Assembly (NCBI GenBank): GCA_026395685.1
Contig: JAPLYG010000018.1
Span: 288-64,287 of the forward strand
Direction: 5' to 3'
From: Candidatus Parcubacteria bacterium
GTDB lineage: Bacteria; Patescibacteriota; Patescibacteriia; CAIXNZ01
DNA length: 64,000 nt
The notes under the pieces are model-generated. The model searched no databases and was not told the origin of the DNA. It worked only from the letters and a program-made list of their open reading frames with translations. Below, piece after piece: positions 939-49,366 of the stretch; position 1 is the stretch's first letter, and every line of letters begins with the position of its first letter. A program made the translations under genes and the position numbers.

Positions 939-1179
939 AGGATTAAAAATATTAAAAGTAATATTAAGCGATAAGATATTGAATACATTAGAATCTTAGC
1001 ATAAAAAATAAAGAAAGTCTGTATCAAAAGCAGATTTAAGGATAATGGTTGACGGATTTGCTAATAAGTGTTATGATTTAGAATCAGTAAATGCTATTTT
1101 AGTAATTGTAAACTTGGGAATATTGCTTATTATTTCTAGACACTGCCAGCGCCAATGGGGCAAAAAGGGAGGATTTATT

Positions 1180-1773
1180 ATGGAATTTTTTCAGAGTGTG
1201 AAGTTACTTGAACAATTAGAACAAAGTGGGCTGGATTTGGATGTGTTGAAGTTGTTGCAAGACAATGAGCATCTGCGCGATCAAGTAATGAAAGCTGTTA
1301 GGGATAAGCAGAAGAAGATTAAGAACGGTGTCTTGTTTCTCAATACGCCTCATGAAATTACAGTTGATTACACTCAATCGCCTGAAGAAATGTGTCATGA
1401 TGCGAAGCTTTCGCCAGGGTGGTTTGATTTTTCAAAGTGTCGTGTGGATTCAGCTCGGGGGCAACAAAAATTTAAGGTATGTGCCCATGAGTTAGTTAAA
1501 AACATTCACCTTACAGAAGCCGCCCATTTTTTGAAAAGTCATTCCTTGACGCCGGCAAGCCTCGAACATTTGTTGGCATTCAAGAAAATATGTCCGCAAT
1601 TCGGCCACCCAGGTTTAATTGCAGCAGTCGGTACAAGCTTCGATAGAGGCTATGGTTATCCTTCATATCCATTTTTTCGATTTTTTGATGATGAAGAAGA
1701 GCTTGATACCACTGGACGGCTGGCTGTATCAGTCTATTGGCATGCCGGAAATCGCATATTAGCAATTTGCTAA
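1180..1773 (+). CDS. Hypothetical protein in a higher-GC cassette with a strong SD
   Basis: The track ORF is 1045..1773. I chose the start at ATG 1180 because AAGGGAGGA lies 6 nt upstream. A rho-independent terminator follows the stop. I recognise no known domain. Confidence 0.5.
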   Translation: MEFFQSVKLLEQLEQSGLDLDVLKLLQDNEHLRDQVMKAVRDKQKKIKNGVLFLNTPHEITVDYTQSPEEMCHDAKLSPGWFDFSKCRVDSARGQQKFKVCAHELVKNIHLTEAAHFLKSHSLTPASLEHLLAFKKICPQFGHPGLIAAVGTSFDRGYGYPSYPFFRFFDDEEELDTTGRLAVSVYWHAGNRILAIC

Positions 1774-1786
1774 TTGGTATCGTATA

Positions 1787-1824
1787 AAGAAATATCCCCG
1801 AGGTATGAATTTTACCTCGGGGTT
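1787..1824 (+). terminator. Rho-independent terminator
   Basis: ccccgaggt...acctcgggg hairpin followed by a T-run. Confidence 0.7.
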
Positions 1825-1882
1825 CTTATTTTTAGGTTTGTTTAAAGAAGATGTTTTAATTAAGTTGTTTGGTCGTAAGTTT

Positions 1883-1918
1883 GTGCCGCAAAGCGGCATC
1901 CTGCTACGCGGGATAAAG
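1883..1918. repeat. 36-nt GC-rich double-hairpin repeat, copy 1 (direct repeat of 2869..2904)
   Basis: gtgccgcaaagcggcatcctgctacgcgggataaag compared with gtgccgcggagcggcatcccgctacgcgggataaag gives 33 of 36 identical. Each copy contains gccgc/gcggc and cccgc/gcggg mini-hairpins. The two copies flank the TerC-like gene. Confidence 0.8.
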
Positions 1919-1922
1919 TATT

Positions 1923-2849
1923 TCAGTCCTTTAACGCTTCACTTTTTTTAATTTCCCGATAGGACAAAAATAAAAATAAAAGCAGAATGACGGCGGTATT
2001 AAGTGTCGGCATCCAGAAAGGCACTTCTTGTCCAAAAGATTCTAAAATCATAATCGCGCCCAGCACGCCAATGGAATACATGGCTCCGTTTTTTAAATAA
2101 GCATATTTAGTAATGATATTTAAGCCATGGATGGTGAATTCTCTGACTACAAAGGCGCCGATGCCATTGCCGATTAAAATTAAAGGCACGGAAACAGTAA
2201 AGGCAAATGCGCCGATGACACCATCAATGGAAAATGAGGCATCAAGAATTTCCAAATATAAAATTTTGCTCCAAGCACTCATTCCCGGGTTTAAAAGTTG
2301 TTTTTCTTTCTCCTCGGCATTTTTCTTAAATCCGTCAGTTAAAAAGAAGGCTGACGCGCCGATTGAAGCCGACAGGGCTAAAAGGGGATTGATAATCAAA
2401 GAAGTATAAATAATGGCAGTCAGGGAAACAGAAGCCAGAAAATAAAACCAGATGCCTTGGCGATGAATGAATTTTTCAACTAGAAAGGCATACTTTTTTT
2501 CTTCTAAAAACAGCCAGGCTAAAGCCACAAAAAACAGATAAACACCGCCGCCTAAAAGCAGAAGGGGCTTTGATTGTTCCACGTATTGTTCGATTTTGGG
2601 ATCCTGGGAAAAAACAAAGGTAAAGACTTCGGTGACTGACAAAGCGGGATTAACCATCCAGACAATTAAAAAAGGCAATATGCCCCTGACAATAAAGACG
2701 GCAAAAATTAAGCCCCAAAAAAGAAAGAGCTTGCGATATTTTTCCGGCATTGTTTTGAGAACATGGGCATTGACTACGGCATTATCAACACTGCTGATAA
2801 TTTCAAACATGCACAAGCCGATGATGACGATAATGATGTTTAGAATCAT
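1923..2849 (-). CDS. TerC/DUF475-like integral membrane protein
   Basis: Polytopic membrane protein with paired DNAVV and LDASFSIDGV motifs typical of the TerC superfamily. Confidence 0.55.
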   Translation of the reverse strand: MILNIIIVIIGLCMFEIISSVDNAVVNAHVLKTMPEKYRKLFLFWGLIFAVFIVRGILPFLIVWMVNPALSVTEVFTFVFSQDPKIEQYVEQSKPLLLLGGGVYLFFVALAWLFLEEKKYAFLVEKFIHRQGIWFYFLASVSLTAIIYTSLIINPLLALSASIGASAFFLTDGFKKNAEEKEKQLLNPGMSAWSKILYLEILDASFSIDGVIGAFAFTVSVPLILIGNGIGAFVVREFTIHGLNIITKYAYLKNGAMYSIGVLGAIMILESFGQEVPFWMPTLNTAVILLLFLFLSYREIKKSEALKD

Positions 2850-2868
2850 GGTTGTATGTTGTTAGGTT

Positions 2869-2904
2869 GTGCCGCGGAGCGGCATCCCGCTACGCGGGAT
2901 AAAG
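2869..2904. repeat. 36-nt GC-rich double-hairpin repeat, copy 2
   Basis: See copy 1. About 8 nt of similar flank lies upstream of both copies. Confidence 0.8.
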
Positions 2905-2915
2905 TTGTAGAGTTA

Positions 2916-3878
2916 TCAAGGTTGTAGAATATCCTCGGTCCTTCCGTCAATTGAAATCGCCACATCTTTAACTGTCGGGAATTGTTTCAATGTCTCCCTT
3001 ATTTGGCTGGCAATGGCGGCCACTCGGCAAGAACCGCCGACCTGAAATTCTAGCTGGCTATTAAAATCAGCATATGCAACGCCGTCTTTTATTGTCACTT
3101 TATTCAAGCTAACGCCTGAATTGATTGAGGTAAAATATTTTTGCGTTAATTCATCTTCAGTCGGGCCTTTTAGGAGCTCTTCCAGGGATGCTTTGGCTGT
3201 GGTGACTGTTTTAGCAATAATGCGGTCAACCGGATAGACTAAGGAACAGTCCATTGCCCCCGGATTTTTCAATTCATTGCCGAAAAATACTTTCAGGGTC
3301 AGAGTTTCAGTCTTTTGAATTTTAACGGGAATTTCAAATTTCTCATCAAGTTCACGCAAATCCGAAGGATTGTCTTTCATAAAAACTAAAGTCCCGTTTT
3401 GATCTTTGGGAGAAATAAAGTTTAATTCAGCTTTAAAAGGCACCCAATTTTCAGTCATCCAGTCACTTTGGGCTGTGGCATAATGAGCAACCAGCACTTT
3501 GCCGTTTTCATCCAATAAAGTTACAGGAAAACTTCCTTCAAAGTACCAGAGCCTGGCAGAGCCGGTTATTGTCAGGGGAGTGGTGATAGTATCGCCAGCC
3601 TTGATATTGTCTATTCTTACATTAACTTCTTCAGGTATGGTATTTGTATTATTATTAGCATTTACATTCGCGTTATTATTATCGTTATAGTTATTGTTCG
3701 CAACAACTCCGCATCCAGTCGTAGGCATCGCGGCAGAAGGATTGCCGTGCTTGAGCCATTGGCCATTACTGCAGTCCCAGGAATCTTCAGTGGATAATTT
3801 TAAATAAGCAACCGAACCAATCGCAATGACAGCCAAAACAATTAAAATAATTGTGACGATTTGGAGTTGTTTGGACAT
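2916..3878 (-). CDS. Membrane-anchored Gmad2 (Ig-like) plus GerMN domain protein
   Basis: N-terminal TM helix, an Asn-rich linker, a Gmad2-like block (RLWYFEGSFPVTLLDENG...MKDNPSDL) and a C-terminal GerMN block (LEELLKGPT...QFPTVKDV). Confidence 0.75.
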   Translation of the reverse strand: MSKQLQIVTIILIVLAVIAIGSVAYLKLSTEDSWDCSNGQWLKHGNPSAAMPTTGCGVVANNNYNDNNNANVNANNNTNTIPEEVNVRIDNIKAGDTITTPLTITGSARLWYFEGSFPVTLLDENGKVLVAHYATAQSDWMTENWVPFKAELNFISPKDQNGTLVFMKDNPSDLRELDEKFEIPVKIQKTETLTLKVFFGNELKNPGAMDCSLVYPVDRIIAKTVTTAKASLEELLKGPTEDELTQKYFTSINSGVSLNKVTIKDGVAYADFNSQLEFQVGGSCRVAAIASQIRETLKQFPTVKDVAISIDGRTEDILQP

Positions 3879-4019
3879 AAGTTTAAAAATTAGGTTATAT
3901 TATGTTTTATTAGGTTAGATGAAGTTTTATTCCGCGATCCGGAATGCCACTCCGTGGCATAAGGTTGCTGTAAAAATTTATTTGATAGATTTTTCCCAGT
4001 TATAAACAAGTGTCAATGA

Positions 4020-4550: not shown

Positions 4551-4562
4551 ATGTTTGTGATA

Positions 4563-4581
4563 TTCGGGCTAGTGGGACTTG
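4563..4581. repeat. 19-nt duplicate of the tRNA-Pro 3' end
   Basis: ttcgggctagtgggacttg is identical to 4630..4648, the acceptor 3' strand and T-arm of the tRNA at 4631..4703. Confidence 0.85.
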
Positions 4582-4613
4582 CCCGCCAGAGGCGGGTCCG
4601 CCCTTGGCGGAAA
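4582..4613. repeat. GC-rich palindromic unit, family CCGCCAGRGGCGG...CTTTGGCGGA, copy 1
   Basis: cccgccagaggcggg plus tccgcccttggcgga. Related copies at 11262..11325 and 24403..24432. Confidence 0.65.
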
Positions 4614-4630
4614 CCCACCGATTTTGATTT

Positions 4631-7060: not shown

Positions 7061-7215
7061 TCAAATAATCAATAAACAATAATCAATAAACAAACAAACT
7101 GTTTATAATTACTAATTTCTAAATTCTAAAATTTAGCATTTGAATTTGGGAATTTGATATTGTTTGATGATTGTTGCTTGATTATTGGTAATTTAATTTA
7201 AATTTTATACTTAAA
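7061..7215. repeat. AT-rich ~150-bp imperfect palindromic intergenic element, copy A (5' of fusA)
   Basis: Left arm aataatcaataaacaataatcaataaacaaac, centre ctaaattctaaaatttag, right arm tgtttgatgattgttgcttgattattgg. The arms are reverse complements of each other. Copies B, C and D are listed below. Confidence 0.7.
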
Positions 7216-9371: not shown

Positions 9372-9383
9372 GATGGGGGCTGA

Positions 9384-9412
9384 TTGACAATATCGGAACC
9401 ATTTGTTAAGTT
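9384..9412 (+). promoter_or_regulatory. Sigma70-like promoter (TTGACA-N17-TAAGTT)
   Basis: Canonical -35 hexamer, exact 17-nt spacer and an AT-rich -10. Sits upstream of the SD-bearing ORF at 9442. Confidence 0.45.
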
Positions 9413-9441
9413 AATATCAAAATTGAAAAGGAGGGACAAAA

Positions 9442-9825
9442 ATGTCCGAAAAACAAGTTTCTTTTTGGCAGACAGCGACAAATGTAGAAAAGATTATCAA
9501 TTCAATTTTAACTCTCATTCTGAATCTTAAAGGACAGCTCATCCCCAACCATCCGTCAGCGATCTATCTGGTTTTTCCTCCGAATGAGCCTAAAAAGGCA
9601 GATCTGTACTTTTCTCCGCAGGCCAAGCTTCAACAGGAGGCGGATATTCTTTTGAGAAGAATCGAGCTGCCGGAAGGCATTTTGATAAATGAGCTTTTAG
9701 GCCTAGCCTCAGTAAGGCTTAATCAACTGTTGCAAGTATACTACAGTCCTAGCAGAAGCATATATTTGCTGGAAACTGAATACCGTGAAGGCGGTCTGAT
9801 GATTAATATGATTAGGAAAGGTTAA
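9442..9825 (+). CDS. Hypothetical protein (island gene, strong SD)
   Basis: AAAGGAGGG lies 6 nt upstream of the ATG. I recognise no domain. It is followed by its own terminator at 9835..9864. Confidence 0.5.
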   Translation: MSEKQVSFWQTATNVEKIINSILTLILNLKGQLIPNHPSAIYLVFPPNEPKKADLYFSPQAKLQQEADILLRRIELPEGILINELLGLASVRLNQLLQVYYSPSRSIYLLETEYREGGLMINMIRKG

Positions 9826-9834
9826 TTGTTTTTC

Positions 9835-9864
9835 AACCACCCAAAAAGGGGTGGTTTTATTTAT
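9835..9864 (+). terminator. Rho-independent terminator
   Basis: aaccaccc-aaaaa-ggggtggtt hairpin followed by a T-run. Confidence 0.7.
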
Positions 9865-9987
9865 GGCCGCAATATTTTGTATTTTGTACTATGTGTATAA
9901 AAAGTGCATAAACCTCGGGATAATTATGTGTATAACTATGTGTATAAGCATGTTGAAAATTTGTTTATAATTAGCCTAGAAATGGCT

Positions 9988-10016
9988 TGACGCAATCTGT
10001 AAATAATTATACAATA
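9988..10016 (+). promoter_or_regulatory. Sigma70-like promoter (TTGACG-N17-TACAAT)
   Basis: Consensus-like hexamers with a 17-nt spacer. Drives the short unit that ends at the terminator 10144..10175. Confidence 0.5.
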
Positions 10017-10143
10017 CAATCACGAACCCTACTTGATTACTGAGTTAAGTATTTCTAATCTCAATTTTTTTGGGATTGGTATTTGGCTCAGTGTCCTAAG
10101 CGGGGTTTTTTGTTGGATAAAATTTTATGGAGGAGAACTTTAA

Positions 10144-10175
10144 AGGAAACACCACGCTGTTTCCTTTTTGTTTTG
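10144..10175 (+). terminator. Rho-independent terminator closing a ~150-nt unit that contains an SD plus a 23-codon ORF
   Basis: aggaaaca-ccacgc-tgtttcct hairpin followed by a T-run. Upstream, GGAGGAG-ATG 10127 opens the ORF MEENFKGNTTLFPFCFVHCRLGR. Confidence 0.55.
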
Positions 10176-10279
10176 TTCACTGTCGTTTAGGAAGGTAATT
10201 AGGATGCTTAAGAGTTTTAAGGGATATTGGCAGATTAACGCAGTAACCAGCCAAAGAAGTAGAAAGGGGGAAGTCTAAA

Positions 10280-11158
10280 ATGGTAGCGACCAAGCTCGTG
10301 ATGAATAATCAGATCCCCAGAGTTTTCAAAAACCTGGATCCTGAAACTCAGCAACTCGCGCAAGCGATTTGCGGCCACAAAGTCAACGGCATAAATGTGC
10401 ATCTGAAGCATTTGGCTGAAAACCTCAGACGTTCGGAAATGATTATTTGGGTGACCAAACGGCTCATTTCGGATGAGGCCCTTGGCGTCAACTGGGAGCA
10501 TTTGCTGGAGGATATTACTGAACAATGCCTCAAACCGTTCCACGAAGAAACCTACCGCCATCTTAAGCGTATGCACCAGATCGTGGCGGAACAGTTGAAA
10601 TTGCTGGAGCATCAAAAGCCTGAACAGCTGGATGACTTTGGCTGTGAAGACTTCCGTACTATGCATCATTTTGAACTGACTCCGGAAGATCAACAAAATC
10701 TGAAATGGGCTGCTGCTTTCCATGATTTGGGGCGTATGTGTTATCCAGTTTCTTTCTGGAATACGCCAGGTCGATTCAGCCAGAAACAGCGAGAGCAGCT
10801 TGAGTTCCATGCTCGGAATTTTTACTTCCTGGGAGAAATGCTTAATGTTTGCCAGGAGGTAATCGCCCTGTCAGTATTGCATCATTATCCCAATAAGGGC
10901 TATCCTGATAACGGTATTATTGCTAAGTTAAGGCCCTTTTTGGATCAGCCGAAATTTCAGTACATGCTGAAATGGCTGGTTACTAACGATGTTTACGGCG
11001 GTGCGACCGACAAGCGCAGTTACCGGGATCAAATCTGGACTCACGAACAAGTGATCCAGCAAACTATGCCTGTGGAAATGGCTCGCGTAGGCCTGGGTTG
11101 GGTGCCTTTTATTCAGGCGCTAAAACAATCCGGACAAAGAGTCGTTTGCCCAGCTTAA
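10280..11158 (+). CDS. Stand-alone HD-GYP-type phosphohydrolase (candidate cyclic-dinucleotide phosphodiesterase)
   Basis: Motifs AAAFHDLGR, PGRFSQKQREQLEFH, HHYPNKGYPDNG (HHExxDGxGYP-like) and NDVYGGATDKRSYRD. Preceded by AAAGGGGGAAG. Coding G+C is visibly higher than in fusA or tuf. Confidence 0.7.
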   Translation: MVATKLVMNNQIPRVFKNLDPETQQLAQAICGHKVNGINVHLKHLAENLRRSEMIIWVTKRLISDEALGVNWEHLLEDITEQCLKPFHEETYRHLKRMHQIVAEQLKLLEHQKPEQLDDFGCEDFRTMHHFELTPEDQQNLKWAAAFHDLGRMCYPVSFWNTPGRFSQKQREQLEFHARNFYFLGEMLNVCQEVIALSVLHHYPNKGYPDNGIIAKLRPFLDQPKFQYMLKWLVTNDVYGGATDKRSYRDQIWTHEQVIQQTMPVEMARVGLGWVPFIQALKQSGQRVVCPA

Positions 11159-11261
11159 CCCTTCAAAGGGCCCCCTTCTACTCAGCTCTATTGTTGGGAG
11201 GAGAGGGCCCTTGACTTTCTTTTCGATTTAAGTTAAGTTATATATAGTTTTTTAGAATTTT

Positions 11262-11325
11262 TGTCCGCCAGGGGCGGGTTCCCGCCATAGGCGGGCAGGC
11301 TGCCTTTGGCGGACAAACTTTTTTT
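11262..11325 (+). repeat. GC-rich palindromic unit, copy 2, acting as a terminator
   Basis: gtccgccaggggcgggttcccgccataggcgggcaggctgcctttggcggac followed by TTTTTTT. Confidence 0.7.
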
Positions 11326-11330
11326 ATTTT

Positions 11331-11642
11331 ATGATCAACTTGCAAAGAATTTTAGATCTTATACGCAAAACAGGGGATAAATATATTTTTGAAGATGAAA
11401 ATAATGGCATGTTTGTAGTTATGTCTTTGCCTGATTATGAAAATTATATTTTTAAAAATAATCAGCTGAAAGACTTATCAGAGGAAGAGCTTTTAAATAA
11501 AATAAATAAAGATATCGCCATCTGGAAAGCTACCCAGGAGGACAAAACATTGGCTGAAAACTGGCATGATTTGCCCCTGGAAGAAAAAAAATCATCAGAA
11601 GATGATCAATACTATTTTGAGCCTGTTGAGGATGAGGAATAA
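11331..11642 (+). CDS. Small acidic protein, possibly a Phd/YefM-like antitoxin fold (orphan)
   Basis: The N-terminus ...GMFVVMSLPDYENY resembles the Phd/YefM core, and the C-terminus is acidic. No toxin partner is adjacent. Native low GC, no SD. Confidence 0.3.
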   Translation: MINLQRILDLIRKTGDKYIFEDENNGMFVVMSLPDYENYIFKNNQLKDLSEEELLNKINKDIAIWKATQEDKTLAENWHDLPLEEKKSSEDDQYYFEPVEDEE

Positions 11643-12981: not shown

Positions 12982-13016
12982 AACCCCCGCCCCCAAAAAA
13001 GGGGCGGGGTTTTATT
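12982..13016 (+). terminator. Rho-independent terminator after tuf
   Basis: acccccgcccc-aaaaaa-ggggcggggt followed by a T-run. Confidence 0.8.
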
Positions 13017-26608: not shown

Positions 26609-27484
26609 ATGAAAAAAATGATAGACTTAGTACAACTTCCGGAAAATGTGATAATTCCAAATTTTGAAAGGTTAGCGGATTTGCTTAAAATATTTAAAGA
26701 ACAGGGTAAAGATAAAATTCATGTTTTAGCTGATTTTGATCGTACTTTGACTAAAGCGATTGTTGCAGGGCAAAAAATGCCTTCTATTATTTCTATCTTG
26801 CGCGATGGACGATTTCTAACTCCTGAATATGCCCAAAAAGCTCATAAGCTGTTTGATTATTATCATCCCTTTGAAATTGATCTAAATTTAGGTTTGGCGG
26901 ATAAAAAGAAAAAGATGGAGGAATGGTGGCGTAAACATTTTGAGCTATTGCTTAAGTCTGGTTTGAGCAAAAAAGAAATCAGCGAAGTAGCCCAAGACCC
27001 TAGAATCCAATTGCGGCCGGGCGCAGAAGAACTCTTAAAAGAACTTAATCAACAAAAAATTCCTTTGGTGATAATGTCATCGGCGGGATTGGGGACTGAA
27101 TCTATTTCTTTGGTTTTACAGAGAGAAAAAAGCCTTTATGACAATATTAATATTATTTCCAATGAGTTTGAATACGACCAAAGCGGCCAAGCGATTAAGG
27201 TCAAAGAGCCGATTATCCATACTTTAAATAAGGATGAAACAATGATCCAACAATTTCCGGCTTATCAGGCCGTTAAAAACCGGCCTAATGTTATTTTGTT
27301 AGGTGATAATTTGGAGGATGTGGGTATGGTTGATGGGTTTGATTATGATAATTTATTGAGGATTGGATTTTTGAACGAAAATGTTGATAGAAACTCGGAA
27401 ATTTACAAGAAAAATTTTGATGTAGTGATAATAAATGATGGGGGGATGGAGTTTATTAATATAATATTGAAAGAAGTTATATGA
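26609..27484 (+). CDS. HAD-superfamily pyrimidine 5'-nucleotidase (UMPH-1-like)
   Basis: The DFDRTLT motif I and the overall length and pattern resemble the cytosolic 5'-nucleotidase III family. Confidence 0.6.
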   Translation: MKKMIDLVQLPENVIIPNFERLADLLKIFKEQGKDKIHVLADFDRTLTKAIVAGQKMPSIISILRDGRFLTPEYAQKAHKLFDYYHPFEIDLNLGLADKKKKMEEWWRKHFELLLKSGLSKKEISEVAQDPRIQLRPGAEELLKELNQQKIPLVIMSSAGLGTESISLVLQREKSLYDNINIISNEFEYDQSGQAIKVKEPIIHTLNKDETMIQQFPAYQAVKNRPNVILLGDNLEDVGMVDGFDYDNLLRIGFLNENVDRNSEIYKKNFDVVIINDGGMEFINIILKEVI

Positions 27485-28844: not shown

Positions 28845-28887
28845 CATCTTGACGCTGTCGCTCGCGAGCGACAGGGTTGACAGGGCG
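28845..28887 (+). terminator. Terminator after recO
   Basis: ctgtcgctcgcgagcgacag hairpin followed by a T9 run. Confidence 0.6.
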
Positions 28888-28895
28888 ATTTTTTT
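28867..28895 (+). promoter_or_regulatory. Promoter TTGACA-N17-TAAGGT (island promoter 1 of 3 sharing this architecture)
   Basis: Exact 17-nt spacer. The identical TAAGGT -10 recurs at 29502..29530 and 32160..32188. Confidence 0.45.
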
Positions 28896-28957
28896 TTGTT
28901 AAGGTCAAGTAAATATTGGAGTAATCTTCCCATTAAAACTAGTCAAAGGAGGGGACT

Positions 28958-29257
28958 TTGGAGATTTTAAAGGTGATAGCGGCAAAGTTGGATAAAGCCT
29001 TTTTGTCCGGAGGTCATTCAAAATTCTTTACGGTTATTGATTTGGTTTTTAAAAAAGATCAGATCTTATCCGAAGAAGATGAAGTAGCCTTACTGGAGTG
29101 GATTCGGGCAGAAATAAAGCCGGAGTGGACTTATATTTGCTGTAATCGAGCCTGGAAAGAAGGCCCCAAGTTTAAGGCCTTTTTGCATCTTTATTGTTTT
29201 GACACGGAACAGAAAATGTATCAGCAGTTGCTAAAAGAATTTAACGTTTTACGATAA
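28958..29257 (+). CDS. Hypothetical protein (island gene, TTG start 5 nt after AAGGAGGGG)
   Basis: Strong SD. I recognise no domain. Confidence 0.45.
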   Translation: MEILKVIAAKLDKAFLSGGHSKFFTVIDLVFKKDQILSEEDEVALLEWIRAEIKPEWTYICCNRAWKEGPKFKAFLHLYCFDTEQKMYQQLLKEFNVLR

Positions 29258-29288
29258 GAGAAGGATCTTTTTAGTGAAAGGAGGGAAT

Positions 29289-29423
29289 ATGGAGGATTCA
29301 TCTGATTATACAGAAGCCAAAAAGGAAGACAAAAAAGGCCGGCGTAAGAAAAAGAAACCGGATAACCGAAAAAAAGAACTGCGCAAAAACTGGAAAACTA
29401 GGTGTGCGGCAAGAAGAATATAA
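29289..29423 (+). CDS. 44-aa highly basic small protein (Lys/Arg-rich), missed by the ORF track
   Basis: AAAGGAGGGAAT-ATG. MEDSSDYTEAKKEDKKGRRKKKKPDNRKKELRKNWKTRCAARRI. Terminator at 29438..29466. Confidence 0.5.
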   Translation: MEDSSDYTEAKKEDKKGRRKKKKPDNRKKELRKNWKTRCAARRI

Positions 29424-29437
29424 ATATTTTGGAATTC

Positions 29438-29466
29438 AAGGACGTTCTCAATGGCGTCCTTTTTTA
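29438..29466 (+). terminator. Rho-independent terminator
   Basis: aaggacg...cgtcctt hairpin followed by TTTTT. Confidence 0.7.
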
Positions 29467-29501
29467 ATTCGAGGAAGGCTGAAATACGAATATTTCGATT
29501 G

Positions 29502-29530
29502 TTGACTTATAGAGGATATCTTGCTAAGGT
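29502..29530 (+). promoter_or_regulatory. Promoter TTGACT-N17-TAAGGT (island promoter 2)
   Basis: Exact 17-nt spacer. Sits upstream of pyrK. Confidence 0.45.
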
Positions 29531-29579
29531 TTGGGTACAAAAAGTTATTTGAAAAATCAAGATAAAGGGAGGATGGGAC

Positions 29580-30386
29580 ATGGAAACATGGAAGATTCAG
29601 GTTGGTGAGGCTGTCGTGGTTTCTAATATTCTTAAAGCCAAAGATACTTGGGAATTAGAATTAAACCTAGGTAATGACCTTGATGTGACTGCTTTTTTGC
29701 CCGGTCAGTTTGTCTGCTTAGCGCCTTTGGATCCGAGCTCAACTATGGCCAGGCCATTCAGTATTGCCAGTATTAGTACTTTCAACGGCACTTTTTCCTT
29801 GCTGTATAAAGTCATTGGAAAAAACACGGAATTGATGGCCAGGCTTGCAGTCGGAGAAAAGGTAAAGTTCTGGGGACCTTTGGGTCAGGGATTTCTACCT
29901 AACACGGATGAGTATGATGAAGTCTGGCTGATAGGCGGTGGAATCGGCATTGCTCCGCTGATTTTCTATGAAAAGGTCGTTTCGGAATTTCAGGGCGGGA
30001 TTGTCAGGGTTTTTTATGGCAATAAAACCGGGGCAGAAATTATTCCCTTGGATTTATATTGCCAAGAACCTTTGATAATAGTCACTGACGATGGCTCCAT
30101 TGGCTGTCAAGGTTTTGTAACTGATGTTGTACAGGCCTACATGAAAGTGGCCAATGAAAAAAAGATTTTAGTCATTACCTGCGGTCCCAAAGTCATGATG
30201 CGCAAAGTTGCGGATATCTGCCAGCAGGCAGGCCAGGATTGCTATGTGATTTTGGAAACAATCATGGCCTGCGGCCTCGGAGTTTGTCTGGGCTGTTCAA
30301 TCAAGACGTCTTCGGGCATGAAACGCATTTGCCATGATGGACCGGTTTTTCCGGCTAAGGAGGTAATCTGGGATGAGCTCAGTTAA
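29580..30386 (+). CDS. pyrK: Dihydroorotate dehydrogenase electron-transfer subunit (FAD/2Fe-2S)
   Basis: FNR-like fold plus a C-terminal CGLGVCLGC...C cluster. SD AAAGGGAGGA. Confidence 0.85.
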   Translation: METWKIQVGEAVVVSNILKAKDTWELELNLGNDLDVTAFLPGQFVCLAPLDPSSTMARPFSIASISTFNGTFSLLYKVIGKNTELMARLAVGEKVKFWGPLGQGFLPNTDEYDEVWLIGGGIGIAPLIFYEKVVSEFQGGIVRVFYGNKTGAEIIPLDLYCQEPLIIVTDDGSIGCQGFVTDVVQAYMKVANEKKILVITCGPKVMMRKVADICQQAGQDCYVILETIMACGLGVCLGCSIKTSSGMKRICHDGPVFPAKEVIWDELS

Positions 30387-31287
30387 TCTTGGCGTTGAGA
30401 TTGGCGGTATCAGACTGAAAAATCCGATTATGCCGGCCTCAGGAACCTTTGGCAACGGAGAAGAATTTGCCGGCATTCAGGGCATGGATTTAAGTGCGCT
30501 GGGAGCGCTGGTTACCAAGGGTACAACTCTGGAACCGCGAGCTGGCAATCCGCAGCCACGGATCAGAGAAACAGCCAGCGGCATGATCAACTTTATAGGC
30601 CTGGCAAATCCGGGTGTTAAAGCTTTTATTGAAGAAAAATTGCCGTTTATGGCTCAGTTCGAGACTCCGATCATTGTCAATGTTTCCGGTTTTACGCTTA
30701 ACGAATATGTTCGGATGGCTGAGTTACTTGATCAGGTGCCATCTGTTGCAGGATTGGAAATAAATATTTCCTGTCCCAATGTAGAAGGCGGCAGAATTCC
30801 TTTTGGCAGTGATGCTCAAATCGCTGCCAATGTTATTCGAGCGGTGCGCAGGGCTACGAAATTGCCTTTGATCGTTAAGCTGACGCCGAACGTAACTGAT
30901 ATTGTGCCGATTGCTAAAGCAGTAGTTGATGTCGGAGCCAATGCCATTTCCATGATCAATACGGTCCGAGCTGCATTTATTGACCGAGGCAAAATCATCC
31001 AGGGCGGGCTTTCTGGCCCGGCTATCAAACCAATTGCCCTATGTCTAATCAATCAGGTGTCTCAGGCAGTCAATGTGCCGATAATAGGCATGGGCGGAAT
31101 CAGTACCCTGCAGGACATTTTTGATTTTTTCCAGGTCGGTGCGTCAGCTGTTGCCATTGGCACAGCGAATTTCAAAAATCCGCTGGTGATGATGGCGCTG
31201 ATTGACCAGCTGGAAAAATATTGTTTGGAACACGGCCTAGCCAATATTGACCAGGTCAAAGCAAGGATAAAAGGAGGAAAAGGGTGA
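30373..31287 (+). CDS. pyrD: Dihydroorotate dehydrogenase catalytic subunit (class 1B)
   Basis: ...IMPASGTFGNG..., ...NISCPN... and GGIST motifs. Confidence 0.9.
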   Translation: MSSVNLGVEIGGIRLKNPIMPASGTFGNGEEFAGIQGMDLSALGALVTKGTTLEPRAGNPQPRIRETASGMINFIGLANPGVKAFIEEKLPFMAQFETPIIVNVSGFTLNEYVRMAELLDQVPSVAGLEINISCPNVEGGRIPFGSDAQIAANVIRAVRRATKLPLIVKLTPNVTDIVPIAKAVVDVGANAISMINTVRAAFIDRGKIIQGGLSGPAIKPIALCLINQVSQAVNVPIIGMGGISTLQDIFDFFQVGASAVAIGTANFKNPLVMMALIDQLEKYCLEHGLANIDQVKARIKGGKG

Positions 31288-32045
31288 TGAAGGAAATTGC
31301 TAATGTCAACGAAAGGTTGATCGTGGCAGCGGACTTTGAGCTGGAAGGCAATGACGTACAGGCGGCGATAAATGTTCGCCAAAAGGTGCTGCAACTTGCC
31401 GATGCTCTCCACGGAACAGGCGTGATCATCAAGGTCAACTCCATCTTACGAGCCGGGGGATACAGCCTGGTCGAAGAGCTCCATGAGCGCGGACTTAAGG
31501 TCATGGCTGATCTCAAGCTGGTGGATATTCCCCAGACCATGAAGATCGACGGACAGCTTCTGGCTTGCTATAAGCCGGAGATTGTCACTGTCATGGCCAA
31601 TGCCGGAATCGATGGCCTGTCAGCCTTGGTTAAGGCTATGCCTGCGACGCAGGTTTTAGCCGTGACGGTGCTGACATCGTTGGATGAAGAAGAATGCCAG
31701 CAGATCTACTGCTGCTCAACCAAAGCCGGCGTGCTCAGATTTGCGCGCATGGCTCAAGCCGCTGGTTGCGCAGGCCTGGTGCTTTCACCCAAGGAAGTGG
31801 ACGTGATCAGGAAACGGCCGGCGTTGAACGCGCTTTCCCTCAATACTCCGGGCATCCGGCCCACCTTCGGCGTGGTCAAAGGCGATGACCAAAAACGGAC
31901 TGACACTCCGGAAGCAGCTTTTCTGGCCGGCGTGGATCGGATCGTGGTCGGACGTCCGATTACCCAGGCGGAAAATCCGCAGGTAGCAGTGCAATTGATC
32001 TTGGAGGAGATCAAGGTCGCACTTGAGAAAAAGGAAAAGAAATAA
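31284..32045 (+). CDS. pyrF: Orotidine-5'-phosphate decarboxylase
   Basis: ADLKLVDIPQTM active-site motif (D-K-x-x-D-I-P-x-T). The highest G+C in the window. Confidence 0.8.
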   Translation: MMKEIANVNERLIVAADFELEGNDVQAAINVRQKVLQLADALHGTGVIIKVNSILRAGGYSLVEELHERGLKVMADLKLVDIPQTMKIDGQLLACYKPEIVTVMANAGIDGLSALVKAMPATQVLAVTVLTSLDEEECQQIYCCSTKAGVLRFARMAQAAGCAGLVLSPKEVDVIRKRPALNALSLNTPGIRPTFGVVKGDDQKRTDTPEAAFLAGVDRIVVGRPITQAENPQVAVQLILEEIKVALEKKEKK

Positions 32046-32046
32046 C

Positions 32047-32082
32047 AGCCAAGGGATTCCCATCCGGGAGTCCCTTTTTTAT
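32047..32082 (+). terminator. Terminator after pyrF
   Basis: agggattcccatccgggagtccct followed by a T-run. Confidence 0.6.
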
Positions 32083-32159
32083 TTCGTTAATCGTTTTTCG
32101 CTATCGATATTCGTTTCATTTATCGTTATACGTCTAACGTAACGAACTTTGATAACTGA

Positions 32160-32188
32160 TTGACGAATTAAACGAGGTTTGATAAGGT
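32160..32188 (+). promoter_or_regulatory. Promoter TTGACG-N17-TAAGGT (island promoter 3)
   Basis: Exact 17-nt spacer. Sits upstream of pyrE. Confidence 0.45.
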
Positions 32189-32239
32189 GGAGGAAATTAG
32201 GGATTGTTTTTAAAGCAAAAAAGAAGAAGGAGGAAAGTG

Positions 32240-33007
32240 ATGAAAGAATTAGCGGTTATTGAGACAGTGAAAAACGGAGGCGTCTTTGCGCTAAATTCAA
32301 GTGACTTTGAAGGGCGGCGCATGACCATCAACGAGGTGGTGGCGATTTTGAGCGCCTTTGATGCCTTTTGGCAATATCAAGGCGATCCTTGCGTCCAAAA
32401 GCCACATGCGCTACTGAAGTCGGGCAAGCACAGCAACGGTTTCATCAATTGCAAGGAGGTGCTGGATTATCCGCTGTTGTGCATGTTGCTGGCGCATGAG
32501 ATGCTCAAAGAAGCCAAATCACATCTTGCTCAGGATGTTCTGGCCACAATAGGCGGGGTGGCTGCTTCAGCCTATTCGGCCTTGGATCCCGGCTTTTGCC
32601 TGGCTTGGCTGTTGAGCAAAGAGTACAATCACCGGATCAAAGCCTTTAAGGCTGAAAAAGACGATAAGGGCAATCCGACCATCATTCGTGGTGGGATCGA
32701 CCCCAGCTTGAATGTCTTGGTCATCAACGAACTGATGACCACGGCCAGCGGCTCAACTTGGGAGACCAAACAAGCTGTCTTGAAAACCAATGGCGACAAG
32801 CCGGCGCCTAAAGTGCTGGATAAAGCGATCGTGTTGATGCACAGATCAAAGGATTTCCAGTTGCCTGACGGCTCACTTGTTGTTCCAGTCTTTCATTTCG
32901 ACATTGAGAACTTCGAGCCGGAAAACTGCCCTTACTGCCAAGTTGGTTCGCAGGCTATCAAGCCCAAAGTCGGCAACAACTGGAATATTTTACACGGCTG
33001 GGCCTAG
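32240..33007 (+). CDS. pyrE: Orotate phosphoribosyltransferase with a C-terminal extension
   Basis: LKSGKHSNGFINCKEVLDYP resembles the OPRTase loop, and VLVINELMTTASGST is the PRPP-binding motif. I chose the start at ATG 32240 after GGAGGAAAGTG. The extra ~70 aa include CPYC. Confidence 0.7.
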   Translation: MKELAVIETVKNGGVFALNSSDFEGRRMTINEVVAILSAFDAFWQYQGDPCVQKPHALLKSGKHSNGFINCKEVLDYPLLCMLLAHEMLKEAKSHLAQDVLATIGGVAASAYSALDPGFCLAWLLSKEYNHRIKAFKAEKDDKGNPTIIRGGIDPSLNVLVINELMTTASGSTWETKQAVLKTNGDKPAPKVLDKAIVLMHRSKDFQLPDGSLVVPVFHFDIENFEPENCPYCQVGSQAIKPKVGNNWNILHGWA

Positions 33008-33024
33008 CGCTATTCAAACAAATT

Positions 33025-33057
33025 GGCCGCCCTCTGCGTTATGGGGGGCGGTCTTTA
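33025..33057 (+). terminator. Terminator after pyrE
   Basis: ccgccc...gggcgg hairpin followed by a T-rich tract. Confidence 0.5.
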
Positions 33058-33089
33058 AATTTGACTTTTTATTGAATTTTGCTACAATA

Positions 33090-33298
33090 TAATCACCAAA
33101 AGCCGTTTGACCCTACTAACAGTAGGGGAGGCACGGGAAGAAACCATTTGGGAGTAGAACCCGTCGTAAACCTGCGTTAAGGGTAAATTAAGAGGCTCTC
33201 CTCGGAGGGAATCAAGGTGGTACCGCGAAGAAAAAACTTCGTCCTTGAATCTATCAGTATTTGGTTTTTTGATAGGTTTAGAGACGAAGTTTTTTTAA
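33090..33298 (+). promoter_or_regulatory. T-box riboswitch leader of aspS
   Basis: AATCAAGGTGGTACCGCGAAG matches the T-box core AAUUAGGGUGGNACCGCG. It is followed by the terminator aacttcgtc...gacgaagtt plus T7 (33236..33298). Confidence 0.6.
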
Positions 33299-33299: not shown

Positions 33300-33430
33300 A
33301 ACCAATCATCAATAATCAAAATCCAAACAATATCTAAATTATAATAACTAATATTCAAACCGTTTAGTGATTAGGAATTGGTTATTTGTATTTGTTTGAT
33401 GATTGAGACTTGATGATTGATTATTAATCA
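33300..33430. repeat. AT-rich imperfect palindromic intergenic element, copy B (between the T-box terminator and the aspS ATG)
   Basis: caatcatcaataatcaaaatccaaacaa ... ctaaattataa ... ttgtttgatgattgagacttgatgattgattatt. Confidence 0.65.
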
Positions 33431-35244: not shown

Positions 35245-35272
35245 GTAGGGGACGCAGATCTGCGTCCCCTAC
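35245..35272. repeat. 28-nt perfect palindrome gtaggggacgcagatctgcgtcccctac (terminator-like), copy 1
   Basis: The second copy at 49313..49340 differs by one compensatory pair (gggga/tcccc versus gggaa/ttccc). Confidence 0.85.
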
Positions 35273-44935: not shown

Positions 44936-44939
44936 TAAA

Positions 44940-47075: not shown

Positions 47076-47204
47076 TTGGATAAGTTATAGGATTTATAGG
47101 AAGAATAGGTAGTAGAGGAAAATAGAATAAGATGATCACAGTCCTCTAATCATCTTCTTCATCTACTTCTTCTAATTCCTCTTTTAATTAATACCAGATT
47201 TTTT

Positions 47205-47370
47205 ACTGATTGTCAAATTCGGGTTTTCGAACCCTTCATTGTTAATAATCAATAACCAATAACACAATCATCAAACAATTCCTAATAACTAAATCTAAAT
47301 ACTAAAATTAGTTATTAGAATTTAAATATTTTTTATTGTTTGATGTTTGATTATTGATGTTTGGTGATTT
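47205..47370. repeat. AT-rich imperfect palindromic intergenic element, copy C (topA leader)
   Basis: aataatcaataaccaataacacaatcatcaaacaa ... ctaaatctaaatactaaaattag ... ttgtttgatgtttgattattgatgtttgg. A minus-strand TTGACA-N17-TATTAAT promoter lies at about 47196..47224. Confidence 0.65.
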
Positions 47371-48498
47371 TTATAGAAGTATATAGTTTTGTCCTCCTAA
47401 ATTCTTAATCATACCCTTCATCTCCATTAGGCTTAAACAGCCGGAAACTAAAGAAGCAGTCAATTTTGTCGATTTTATAATATCATCAATATGTTTCGGT
47501 TCATGATTAAGGTTTTTATATATTAATTTTTCTTCAGTTGTTTGGGGCAGCACCAGCTGGTTGGATATATAACTTTTAACCTCATTAAGATTTAGTTCTT
47601 CCAAAATTTCCTGATAGTTAGTTATTAATTTGGCACCTTTTTGAATTAATTTATTCGTGCCGATAGAATTCTCATTATAAATTGAGCCTGGGACGGCGAA
47701 TACTTCGCGGTTTTGTTCCAAAGCTATATAGGCGGTAATTAATGCCCCGGATGTTTCAGCCGCTTCAATTACTAAGGTTCCTAAACTTAAACCGGAAATT
47801 ATGCGATTGCGGATCGGGAAGTTATGCTTAAGCGGCAACATGCCAATGGGAAACTCCGATATGATAGTGCCATCATGCTCTAAAATGTTTTTAGCTATAT
47901 AGCGGTTTGAAGAAGGATAAATACTGGTGGTATCTAAGCCGCTGCCTAAAACTGCGATTGTTTTTCCCTGAACATCTACTGCGCTCTGATGGGCTAAGGC
48001 ATCCACGCCAATTGCCAATCCGCTGACAATTGTGAAGCCATTTTGGGCTAAAGGCTTTACCAGTTTCGGCGTTATCTGTTTGCCATAGTTGGAAATTTTT
48101 CTGGTGCCCACAACAGCCAGATTATAGCGGCAGTTAAAATTCTTGATATTTCCTTTGATATATAATAAGGCAGGTGGATTAAAAATTTCTTTAAGCAACT
48201 CTGGATAGTCTTCATCTTTAACCGTAAGCGCGTTAATGCCTTCAGTTTGAATTTTTTCCATTTCAGTATCGGGATCAATTTGTTCTTTAGTTAAATAAAA
48301 CTCCCTGGCAATGTTTTCCTCCAGGCCGCTTTTTTGCAATTCTAAAAGATCGGCTTCCCAGGCAGCTTTCATATCAGGGAAGTGATTATAAAGTTTTTTA
48401 AACCTGTTTGCGCCGATTTTGGCAAACTGGCTGATGGCGATCCAGTATTTTAGATCATTGTTCATTGTTTTTATTTCCTTTTTGCGTTTATTAGGCAA
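47371..48498 (-). CDS. dprA: DNA processing protein DprA (Smf)
   Basis: Rossmann-fold DprA core (GxAxGxDxxAH) with the conserved dprA-topA synteny. Confidence 0.85.
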   Translation of the reverse strand: MPNKRKKEIKTMNNDLKYWIAISQFAKIGANRFKKLYNHFPDMKAAWEADLLELQKSGLEENIAREFYLTKEQIDPDTEMEKIQTEGINALTVKDEDYPELLKEIFNPPALLYIKGNIKNFNCRYNLAVVGTRKISNYGKQITPKLVKPLAQNGFTIVSGLAIGVDALAHQSAVDVQGKTIAVLGSGLDTTSIYPSSNRYIAKNILEHDGTIISEFPIGMLPLKHNFPIRNRIISGLSLGTLVIEAAETSGALITAYIALEQNREVFAVPGSIYNENSIGTNKLIQKGAKLITNYQEILEELNLNEVKSYISNQLVLPQTTEEKLIYKNLNHEPKHIDDIIKSTKLTASLVSGCLSLMEMKGMIKNLGGQNYILL

Positions 48499-48668
48499 TT
48501 GGTGTTTAAATGATTAATAACAAATTTTTAATTTTTAGTGAATGAAATAATGATTTAATGTCTAAATTCAGACATTACAAACTTAGTCATTGAATAAAAA
48601 TTATAAATTAAAAATTAATAATTAAAGAAATGGTGCTTTTTTGTATATTATCACATAAACTTTAGTCT

Positions 48669-48697
48669 TGACAAAAGGTCATTTTTTTGATATGCTG
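48669..48697 (+). promoter_or_regulatory. Promoter TTGACA-N17-TATGCT driving a ~235-nt leader
   Basis: Consensus -35 hexamer with a 17-nt spacer. The leader contains a long-range CCAGCG/CGCTGG pairing and a GAGAGUAGC motif. Confidence 0.45.
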
Positions 48698-48935
48698 GAG
48701 AATAATAAAAAATTAGTAGATTAGTAGCCAATTAGTATTCAGACTTCTATCTGCCAGCGCGAAATCAAAAGGGACCCTCCTCCTGATTAGAGAGTAGCTA
48801 AGTTAGGGTATTAGCCTTGTGCGAATTATTCTACGCTGGCGGGTAGTATTCTTGATAGTAATGGCAAGGGGGCTTTGAGTCTGGTATTAAGAGCCTTTTG
48901 CATAAAATCAAACCAAAGCGCAAGGAGGATTGATC

Positions 48936-49145
48936 ATGAATTGTCCGTTAATGAAAGGTGATCAAATAAAGATGTGTGGGGCTTTCCAATGCAGACTAGT
49001 TTTGTCCCCGGAGGAATTGAAGGAAGTCTGTTCCAACGACAGTTGGAGGAACTGCAGCTTTTATTTAAAGCACCAGCAACAGGGGCAACAGTTGCCGATT
49101 CATGAACACTATGACCACTATGATAAACGGCCGCCTCTGTGTTAG
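48936..49145 (+). CDS. Cys/His-rich small protein (putative metal-binding) with a strong SD
   Basis: MNCPLMKGDQIKMCGAFQCRLVLSPEELKEVCSNDSWRNCSFYLKHQQQGQQLPIHEHYDHYDKRPPLC. GCAAGGAGGATTGATC-ATG. Higher local G+C. Confidence 0.5.
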   Translation: MNCPLMKGDQIKMCGAFQCRLVLSPEELKEVCSNDSWRNCSFYLKHQQQGQQLPIHEHYDHYDKRPPLC

Positions 49146-49312
49146 AGCGGAGCTGCTTTAGCTCCCGCCTACGCTCATCCTTCACTTCGCTACGGAGGGC
49201 TTCGGCGGGCAGGCGACCCTTGTCTGCCCCGCCAAAAAAATCATGCGGTTTGTCGTAAGACAGCCGCTTTTATTTTTGGGAAATAAAAAATCCGCTCATT
49301 TTTTTAAAAAAT

Positions 49313-49340
49313 GTAGGGAACGCAGATCTGCGTTCCCTAC
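49313..49340. repeat. 28-nt perfect palindrome gtagggaacgcagatctgcgttccctac, copy 2
   Basis: See 35245..35272. Confidence 0.85.
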
Positions 49341-49366
49341 AAATATAAATTATTTGAGCGGATTTT

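Follow-up and report, generated by a model that had tools for sequence, protein, structure and literature searches.

Lineages that are poor in Shine-Dalgarno (SD) sequences and keep the complementary anti-SD are already known among the Bacteroidota and some Cyanobacteria. Genomic islands and the amelioration of laterally acquired genes reportedly go back to a concept of Lawrence and Ochman, while the cassettes of integrons usually lack a promoter of their own. In Bacteroidia, SD-less genomes keep the anti-SD and are characterized by an extended SD on rpsU and by autoregulation of bS21 (PMC7797042, PMC9976891, PMC13000453), and these papers do not describe whole SD-led operons for F. johnsoniae (PMC7797042, PMC9976891). 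For the candidate phyla radiation (CPR), the one paper found reports a frequent absence of the anti-SD motif from Parcubacteria (PMC9297842); an SD signature of rpsU is not mentioned for CPR in the literature found, being described there for Bacteroidota only. In the current work, a 64,000-nt stretch of DNA from a Candidatus Parcubacteria bacterium (the “window”, part of the 75,354-nt contig JAPLYG010000018.1 of a metagenome-assembled genome (MAG), with locus tags NTZ49_05005 onward) was analyzed with respect to ten genes led by strong SDs. These are here named cassette genes after an earlier note on this DNA, which had interpreted them as self-contained expression cassettes repeatedly acquired from SD-using donors of higher GC content, and they consist of five open reading frames (ORFs) of 197, 127, 99, 44 and 69 amino acids (aa), a gene for a predicted HD-GYP-fold protein (the HD gene), and pyrK, pyrD, pyrF and pyrE’. 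They are located in four loci (locus 1, 1160-1830; locus 2, 9380-11330; locus 3, 28867-33060; locus 4, 48669-49350), all features of which are on the plus strand unless indicated otherwise. On balance, and with moderate confidence, we interpret this genome as one with two modes of translation initiation, in which the SD-led islands would be long resident and prone to recombination, rather than freshly captured cassettes.

The energy of the duplex formed with the 16S tail CACCUCCUUU was calculated for every candidate start (n=1320) of the ORFs that, on either strand, are 40 aa or longer. Seventeen of these 1320 starts reach -11 kcal/mol or lower. Of these, 12 belong to the ten cassette genes, either as their start or as an alternative start next to it, and five are located inside, or out of frame with, real genes. 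At curated starts the cassette genes score between -11.0 and -12.5 kcal/mol (mean -11.9), with a distance of 4-9 nt from GGAGG to the start, whereas the 52 native genes have a mean of -0.04 kcal/mol (standard deviation (sd) 2.5). The two distributions do not overlap (Mann-Whitney p = 6.6e-7), and the contrast which the earlier note had drawn between cassettes and native genes is therefore far beyond chance. The two exceptions named there are also recovered, rpsU representing the native minimum at -9.0 kcal/mol and tuf, which had been credited with a partial SD, being the next strongest native gene at -6.9 kcal/mol. The SD-poor core is a lineage-wide trait, as seen from 74 related fusA loci with a median of approximately -3 for the best-of-starts energy and with 0-19% of the ORFs reaching -9 or lower, such that the proposed scarcity of SDs among core genes holds well outside the window.

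The 3’ end of the 16S rRNA is canonical (GGATCACCUCCUUUCU / GGATCACCTCCTTTCT) in the two relatives whose loci include it. Within the initiation regions (-30 to +30), SD-led genes fold at -8.0 kcal/mol versus -3.9 kcal/mol for SD-less ones (p = 0.0015). Across 80 related loci the 52 ORFs with the strongest SDs are for the most part accessory genes, among them purF, an aldolase gene and numerous small, unknown proteins, and display a mean GC excess of +1.7%, versus -0.35% (p = 0.005), which speaks for a history of lateral transfer of the SD-led loci. Two classes of initiation region are thus present, which would correspond to the two proposed modes: most genes (among them the ribosomal-protein operons, secY, aspS, parAB and pth) have AU-rich, weakly structured leaders that lack an SD, and a small number of units, namely the HD gene, the pyr operon, rpsU and some orphan small genes, have consensus SDs. 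The ribosome would retain a usable anti-SD, and SDs would be retained because initiation regions that are GC-richer and more structured need them, while some units may be controlled at the SD itself, by means of a coupled upstream ORF (uORF) or an anti-SD-like box in the leader.

The HD gene of locus 2 (10280-11158, 292 aa, GC content 47%, GC content at third codon positions (GC3) 0.515) is located between fusA and a 103-aa ORF followed by tuf. Its closest described counterparts are HD-GYP phosphodiesterases (V-cGAP3, 5z7c; PmGH, 4mcw; DvhD, 9rbz), with which it shares invariant HD, HH and GYP columns: in an alignment of 12 sequences H88, H148, D149, H177, H201, H202, Y208 and P209 are invariant and D237 is conserved in at least 90%. 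The HD profile matches the cyclic GMP-AMP (cGAMP) phosphodiesterase PDB 5z7c (E 0.004), and the AlphaFold2 (AF2) model, with a predicted local distance difference test (pLDDT) score of 89.7, matches the HD-GYP domains 9rbz and 4mcw with a probability of 1.00, the score against Pfam HD_5 being 17 bits with a cutoff of 27. Unlike these phosphodiesterases, the window protein is very divergent and stand-alone at 292 aa, belongs to a family of 11 proteins among 5.8 billion clusters, and is known from sequence and model; it is accordingly named here a very divergent, predicted HD-GYP-fold protein. In the source annotation the gene is represented by a 195-aa fragment.

Upstream of the HD gene, a control region (9888-10015) which is kept in relatives encompasses three ACTATGTGTATAA boxes (9888-9947) and a promoter TTGACG-17-TACAAT (9987-10015). 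This is followed by a leader RNA (10022-10175), consisting of a rod hairpin of ~85 nt with a U-tract (10022-10115) and a second hairpin-terminator (10142-10175), and by a uORF of 24 codons with its own SD (10204-10278), whose TAA stop is located 1 nt before the HD start and whose 3’ end contains the SD of the HD gene. The terminator hairpins of the HD gene (11160-11325) overlap the promoter that serves tuf and the native 103-aa ORF (TTGACT-17-TAAGTT), which is conserved. The HD gene occupies the same position, with fusA before it and the 103-aa ORF and tuf behind it, in relative A (L081, 80% identical), in relative B (L083, 68%) and in a more distant genome (L001, 42%), and the HD loci of all four genomes have in common the ATGTGTATAA-type boxes, a TTGAC-N17 promoter and the rod hairpin with its U-tract. 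This hairpin has z scores of -4.4 to -8.8 in the four genomes, its interior sequence being replaced in L001 with the fold kept, and the second terminator and SD-led uORF of ~24 codons ending at the HD start are found in the three closer genomes (the uORF having an equivalent in L081 and L083). The control-region counterparts are located at ~7640-8000 in L081 and in L083, and at ~2400-2610 in L001. In the window and its relatives the SD of the HD gene scores between -11 and -15.6, and in L081, L083 and L001 its GC3 is 0.47-0.52 versus a GC content of 0.36-0.38 for the locus. No Rfam match was obtained for the control region and leader (9888-10279), using either the gathering threshold or E <= 1, and its sequence makes it a candidate attenuator or riboregulator. 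Judged by these alignments, the HD gene appears to be an old, elaborately regulated resident, next to which only the adjoining 127-aa unit varies.

Locus 3 is best compared to the pyr operons of Bacillota with class 1B dihydroorotate dehydrogenase (pyrK-pyrD-pyrF-pyrE), with which it shares its gene order and the recognition of pyrK, pyrD and pyrF by Pfam and NCBIfam. The pyrK-pyrD-pyrF unit (29502-32076, GC content 45-55%) is composed of a promoter TTGACT-17-TAAGGT (29502-29530), pyrK (29580-30386), pyrD (30373-31287), pyrF (31287-32045) and a terminator (32051-32076). It is followed by a pyrE’-like unit (32068-33053) with a phased TCGTT array (32068-32167), a promoter TTGACG-17-TAAGGT (32160-32188), a gene for a divergent phosphoribosyltransferase (PRTase; pyrE’, 32240-33007) and a terminator (33025-33053). 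The class 1B pyrD scores 363 bits against NF005574 (cutoff 269) and pyrF 124 bits against TIGR01740 (cutoff 92); for pyrK the Pfam domains pass and the NCBIfam equivalog is reached with 178 bits, below its cutoff of 219, while pyrE’ obtains 43 bits (4e-11) against TIGR01367, below the cutoff of 150. Different from the Bacillota operons, the window locus has no PyrR-type leader, its divergent pyrE’ remains below the cutoffs, pyrB and pyrC are lost, a conserved poly-basic mini-ORF is present within the operon, and the nearest relatives are all CPR.

In four related loci, of relatives A (L084) and B (L085) and of L129 and L130, recO is followed by pyrB, (a small ORF), pyrC, pyrK, pyrD and pyrF in this order, with pyrE’ after pyrF in L084, L085 and L129, and L130 ending inside pyrF; the next gene after pyrE’ is aspS in L129, whereas in L085 two small ORFs come in between. 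The pyr genes of these four loci have SD energies of -10.9 to -16.2 when scored at their real start (the SD of the L129 pyrE’ being read at the real start, not energy-scored) and a raised GC content, whereas the genes flanking the operon have neither. Both pyrB and pyrC are present in the relatives and absent from the window locus between recO and aspS. Upstream, the promoter TTGACA-17-TAAGGT (28877-28905), which is 93-97% identical to that of L084 and L085 and drives pyrB in the relatives, here drives the 99-aa orphan ORF (28958-29257, TTG start), which starts exactly at the start of pyrB, has an SD that aligns with that of pyrB, and is absent from the syntenic relatives. The 44-aa poly-basic ORF (29289-29423, followed by a terminator at 29438-29461, the unit encompassing 29289-29461) is a homolog of the ORF between pyrB and pyrC, with 77% identity over 31 aa to the corresponding mini-ORF of L084. 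The promoter and leader of pyrK are conserved in relatives, the three pyr promoters share an unusual -10 sequence, TGnTAAGGT, and a duplicate of the TCGTT array, with 83% identity, is located upstream of pyrK in L084. Since the promoter and SD of the 99-aa ORF, the 44-aa ORF, and the promoter and leader of pyrK are shared with relatives, the signals of locus 3 that had appeared to be private are, by all indications of the alignments, ancestral signals of the operon. The loss of pyrB and pyrC with retention of pyrK, pyrD, pyrF and pyrE’ implies a truncated pathway that would lead from dihydroorotate or orotate to uridine monophosphate (UMP); carAB was not seen in the window, which also contains a gene for a UMPH-1 pyrimidine 5’-nucleotidase (26609-27484).

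HD and pyr are kept at fixed chromosomal sites throughout the clade, where they also have their promoters, leader RNAs, SDs, terminators and elevated GC3 in common, and would therewith represent long-resident accessory operons. The window has a GC content of ~36-38%, which rises sharply at 29.5-33 kb, with a step up to 47-54% at 30-33 kb. When expressed as z scores relative to the native genes, GC3 is elevated for pyrF (5.8), pyrE’ (5.4), the 69-aa gene (3.9), HD (3.3), pyrK (2.5) and pyrD (2.3), with values of 0.6 for the 197-aa gene, 0.6 for the 44-aa ORF, 1.4 for the 99-aa ORF and 1.6 for the 127-aa ORF. A GC3 of at least 0.46 is found in 6/10 cassette genes versus 0/52 native genes (Fisher p = 3e-6), and the composition of locus 1 and of the first parts of loci 2 and 3 is not distinct. 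The elevated GC content that had been ascribed to the cassettes in general is thus retained for pyrK, pyrD, pyrF, pyrE’, HD and the 69-aa gene, and has to be dropped for the 197-, 127-, 99- and 44-aa ORFs. Orthologs in four further genomes deviate in the same way, so that the excess does not date a transfer.

The promoters and hairpin-T terminators that had been taken to be a property of the cassettes are present at these sites, but equally good ones flank native units. Promoter-like sites were detected at rpsL (5951), tuf (11650, 11/12 matches), the T-box/aspS unit (33061), parA (41389) and rpsU (56122), and terminators at 12985, 35244, 39830 and 56062, downstream of tuf, aspS and others; across the whole window, the number of promoter-like sites is ~1.3-2.5 sd above that of shuffled sequences. 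Because comparable signals serve native units, such sites do not mark cassettes, and their presence was rejected as a hallmark.

A comparison of identities between genomes indicates that the SD-led units have been exchanged. Core proteins are 91-97% identical between relatives A and B and 74-93% identical between the window genome (W) and A, which places the window outside the A/B sister pair. For HD, pyrK and pyrD this relation is inverted, W-A identity being higher than A-B identity (80 vs 67%, 75 vs 66% and 86 vs 74%, respectively). At the HD locus, a sliding comparison limited the discordance to the coding sequence of HD itself, whereas leader, 103-aa ORF and tuf follow the species pattern. 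Two types of pyrF were distinguished, one shared by W and genome F (63% identical), the other by A, B and genome Bu (70-83% mutually), with 33-41% identity between groups; at the DNA level, the pyrF segment of the window is not similar to A or B, while both of its flanks align. In recO and ruvX, located beside the operon, A-B identity is lowered as well. The pattern appears to be one of allelic or xenologous replacement in place between relatives. From the idea of repeated acquisition by horizontal gene transfer (HGT), the discordant HD, pyrK and pyrD genes, the swapped pyrF and the lineage-specific 127- and 99-aa ORFs thus survive, whereas a recent import in the form of self-contained cassettes is not supported, HD and pyr being found with conserved synteny, strong SDs and a raised GC content in three to four further genomes.

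We propose that SD-led units are exchanged among related lineages by in-place replacement between conserved flanks, which would give rise to the displacement of pyrF, to the discordant alleles of HD, pyrK and pyrD, and to swaps of ORFs behind ancestral signals, such as the replacement of pyrB by the 99-aa ORF. Since DprA is encoded, transformation followed by homologous recombination would be a plausible route. Repeated recombination may keep the SD-led units distinct, and, more speculatively, GC-biased gene conversion resulting from frequent recombination could sustain their GC3 excess. An ancient foreign origin of the SD-led units is plausible.

Several points weigh against this reading of long-resident, recombining islands in a genome with two initiation modes. 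The 16S rRNA gene of the source genome is located outside the window, its anti-SD being deduced from two relatives, and about half of the Parcubacteria are without an anti-SD motif (PMC9297842). The argument for SD function is one of sequence conservation. The persistence of a GC3 that is 0.1-0.3 above background over such divergence is without explanation, and the discordant identities of HD, pyrK and pyrD could partly reflect differences in rate. The 197-, 127-, 99- and 69-aa orphans have few or no comparators by which their age or origin could be judged. Finally, a giant GC-rich ORF (from 58931 to the end of the window, GC content 0.438) has no SD, its GC3 of 0.387 being native-like.

The explanation that fares best next to the proposed one, and which would complement it, is that only the orphan units (197, 127, 99 and 69 aa) are recent arrivals or newly born genes that landed or arose in permissive intergenic slots beside the old SD-led operons; we regard this as possible, yet somewhat doubtful. 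These proteins are singletons or near-singletons among billions of proteins and are not found in syntenic relatives. The 127-aa unit of locus 2 (9384-9856), which occupies a variable slot directly after the fusA terminator, consists of a promoter TTGACA-17-TAAGTT (9384-9412), an SD GGAGGG (9430-9435), the coding sequence (9442-9825) and a terminator (9835-9856); it is absent from L001, L081 and L083, the slot being occupied in L081 by an unrelated 1007-aa gene, and its protein represents a singleton cluster. The 99-aa ORF took the place of pyrB behind old signals, and in L085 and L129 other small SD-led ORFs are located around the same islands. On the opposite side, the GC3 of the orphans is native-like, providing no compositional sign of import, no donor was found in viral, PHROG, PADLOC, phage and plasmid searches, and the 127- and 99-aa ORFs are only putative coding sequences.

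The orphan of locus 1, a gene for 197 aa (1180-1773, GC3 0.379), is preceded by a promoter-like sequence TTGACG-17-TATGAT obtained by promoter scan (1049-1077) and by an SD GGGAGG (1167-1172), 7 nt before the ATG and with an energy of -11.5, and shares a bidirectional hairpin-T terminator (1796-1822, both strands) with a convergent TerC/DUF475 gene. In a search of 1.8 billion representatives its protein had a single match, a cluster with 95% identity, and a metagenome scan found nothing. In GenBank the gene is given as 242 aa starting at 1045, that is, 135 nt upstream of 1180; the gene calls of relatives have 197 aa, in favour of the start at 1180 to which the SD points. A structure predicted by AF2 from the single sequence was discarded as unusable (pLDDT 37).

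Locus 4 (48668-49277) is composed of a promoter TTGACA-17-TATGCT (48668-48696), a structured leader of ~235 nt (48700-48935) with an anti-SD-like box CCCUCCUCC (CCCUCCU), a Cys/His-rich ORF of 69 aa (48936-49145) that is missing from the source annotation, and a terminator (~49245-49277). The protein has a single homolog (66%, in L086), and L086 shares the promoter and the leader of ~235 nt (~190-419 in L086). At least one apparent compensatory change in a long helix was noticed by eye in the alignment of the two leaders, and the conservation of the CCCUCCU box suggests that it could pair with the SD and thereby sequester it; the leader has no Rfam match. In L086 (687-996) the 69-aa unit is followed by a tRNA-Thr and then by the C-terminus of a phage-integrase-family protein, and the matching position of the window (~49150-49175) resembles the 5’ part of the L086 tRNA-Thr, not being a tRNA. 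This tRNA-Thr and integrase of L086 represent the sole hint of a mobile element that was found, and it lies outside the window.

A less probable explanation, which we judge unlikely, is that, as in Bacteroidia, the bulk of the ribosomes cannot use SDs and that a subpopulation, for example one without bS21, translates a co-regulated set of SD-led genes (rpsU, pyr, HD-GYP and the orphans). It derives its interest from rpsU (bS21, 56122-56421, plus strand), the sole native gene with a strong SD (AAGGAGA, 56170-56176) and provided with its own promoter. In related metagenomic loci (L087-L128) the SD of rpsU is strong (E <= -7) in 40/41 cases, many being extended to GGAGGUGA with energies of -12 to -16; the neighbouring ORFs have a median of -2.5, and of 19 ORFs of at least 80 aa with an energy of -10 or lower, 15 are rpsU. 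Together with the anti-SD kept in relatives and the Bacteroidia precedent (PMC7797042, PMC9976891, PMC13000453), this could speak for a Patescibacteria clade with an independently evolved SD-ignoring ribosome, in which the anti-SD would be kept for a small translational regulon, though the chance of this seems slim. The parallels with Bacteroidia comprise a genome nearly devoid of SDs, a canonical anti-SD as seen in two relatives, and an rpsU with a strong and conserved SD. The phylum is a different one, however, the bS21 C-terminus is strongly basic here, unlike the less basic C-terminus with signature Tyr54 of Bacteroidia (PMC7797042), and F. johnsoniae has a strong SD on rpsU only, whereas here whole operons (pyr, HD-GYP) and orphans are SD-led, for which SD-capable ribosomes are the simpler explanation. 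If the gated reading were true, rpsU would autoregulate bS21 and exposure of the anti-SD would switch on the SD-led islands together, the SD serving to address a conditional set of genes, a role that would also explain its retention over deep time.

Still less support was obtained for the original proposal of a recent, repeated capture of self-contained cassettes from SD-using, higher-GC donors, possibly by a dedicated mechanism, which we consider very unlikely. It is true that in six genes a strong SD goes together with an elevated GC3, that orphan cargo is present, that the slot after fusA is variable, and that in L086 a tRNA-Thr and a gene of the phage-integrase family are neighbours of the 69-aa cassette. 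As regards the two large loci, however, the model is contradicted by the synteny and orthologous signals of HD and pyr, whose sites are conserved across three to four other genomes with core proteins 55-94% identical, and four of the ten genes are without a GC signal and the same type of promoter and terminator serves native genes. Donors of higher GC content from outside the CPR are disfavoured by pyrD, as its nearest homologs are all CPR (86, 85, 80, 75 and 72%, down to 60%), non-CPR homologs following from ~55% downward. A specific capture mechanism finds no basis in the window either, where Pfam scans of native and cargo genes revealed no recombinase, integrase or transposase, and where the loci are not bracketed by repeats. 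The repeat searches around each locus returned only operator boxes and self-similarity of SD regions, and the units share no repeat family; a 12-nt repeat (9313/10171) brackets ancestral elements and is within chance, and the three tRNAs of the window adjoin none of the four loci. A phage or plasmid origin of the cargo, for which homology searches had been suggested, was rejected: viral contigs, PHROGs and PADLOC produced no match except a weak PRTase PHROG for pyrE’, and tblastn of four cargo proteins against GenBank phages and PLSDB plasmids gave none.

With Lawrence-Ochman islands the SD-led units have in common a local excess of GC and GC3, distinct expression signals, accessory functions and discordant histories; they differ in that their position is kept over deep divergence, that they are not ameliorated, and that their exchange looks like homologous replacement. 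When compared with islands of the integrase type, an integrase, a tRNA target and direct repeats are all missing from the window. They resemble integron cassettes in being small compact units that each end in a hairpin and are scattered as modules, but have neither IntI nor an attI or attC array, are dispersed over 48 kb rather than arranged in tandem, and possess their own promoters. Lastly, an assembly chimera, in which GC-richer fragments would have been spliced into the contig, might be suspected from the MAG source and the sharp GC step at 29.5-33 kb, yet is effectively refuted by the recurrence of gene order, junction sequences and GC steps in independent NCBI, ENA, JGI and Logan assemblies.

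With respect to the remainder of the window, its EF-G is nearest to that of Uhrbacteria (82%), of a Patescibacteria genome (79%) and of Magasanikbacteria-labelled genomes (~75%), which, following GTDB, would place the source genome in the ABY1 class of Patescibacteria. The 5’ part contains the ribosomal genes of the str/S10/spc cluster and, after these, secY, adk, map, SRAP, UMPH-1, ruvX and recO; after recO, the pyr genes are succeeded by a T-box leader with aspS, and by scpAB, parAB, relA/spoT, topA, dprA, pth, der, hisS and rpsU, the 3’ end being formed by two giant surface proteins that resemble type IV secretion system (T4SS) pilins. The T-box leader (33097-33249) scores 58 bits (E 4e-10), below the Rfam gathering threshold (93 bits), and is served by a separate promoter at 33061, aspS itself being without an SD. 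Rfam searches of the whole window (gathering and E <= 1) returned only three tRNAs, this sub-threshold T-box and noise, and no known leader riboswitch. Between fusA (or HD) and tuf, the 103-aa acidic ORF (11331-11642) is kept in 38/80 related loci without an SD, and has no match in Pfam, PHROG or PADLOC. In relative B, fusA is broken into five ORF fragments (L083, 5340-7425) with the remaining genes of the locus intact, which is probably due to frameshift errors of the assembly.

Three families of repeated elements were observed. A 48-nt double-hairpin repeat (1872-1919, 2858-2905 and 3918-3965) is located just 3’ of the stop in two of three minus-strand genes that follow one another at 1.9-4.6 kb, and also occurs where the second and the third of them are separated. 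A 28-nt palindromic terminator GTAGGGnACGCAGATCTGCGTnCCCTAC is present at 35245-35272 (aspS) and at 49313-49340 (pth/69-aa region). A GT-rich 56-nt element (TTGTTTGATGATTG...; 7138-7193, 33370-33425, 47314-47369 and 50023-50078) is found upstream of fusA and aspS and in two further intergenic regions. The region at 59-64 kb had been considered to be ORF-free and GC-rich (an unusual RNA or recoded sequence), which was rejected as it consists of a single giant ORF (58931-64000) of at least 1690 codons that runs off the end of the window, with a GC content of 44%, an N-terminus like that of a signal sequence or T4SS pilin, and domains of the TIG and Big_5 types; the 658-aa gene ahead of it is of the same type.

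The source annotation appears to have been misled by the unusual start signals of the SD-led genes, resulting in a start of the 197-aa gene at 1045 instead of 1180, an HD gene cut to 195 aa and the absence of the 69-aa gene. Two candidate cis-regulatory RNAs, the leaders of the HD gene and of the 69-aa gene, may be added to the description of the lineage. For the calling of HGT, the present case means that a GC3 excess and foreign-looking signals can last very long, and should not be taken as a sign of recent acquisition. What would be new for CPR is the sharp division, conserved among relatives, of the genes into housekeeping genes that lack an SD and accessory operons that are led by one, together with the SD signature of rpsU.

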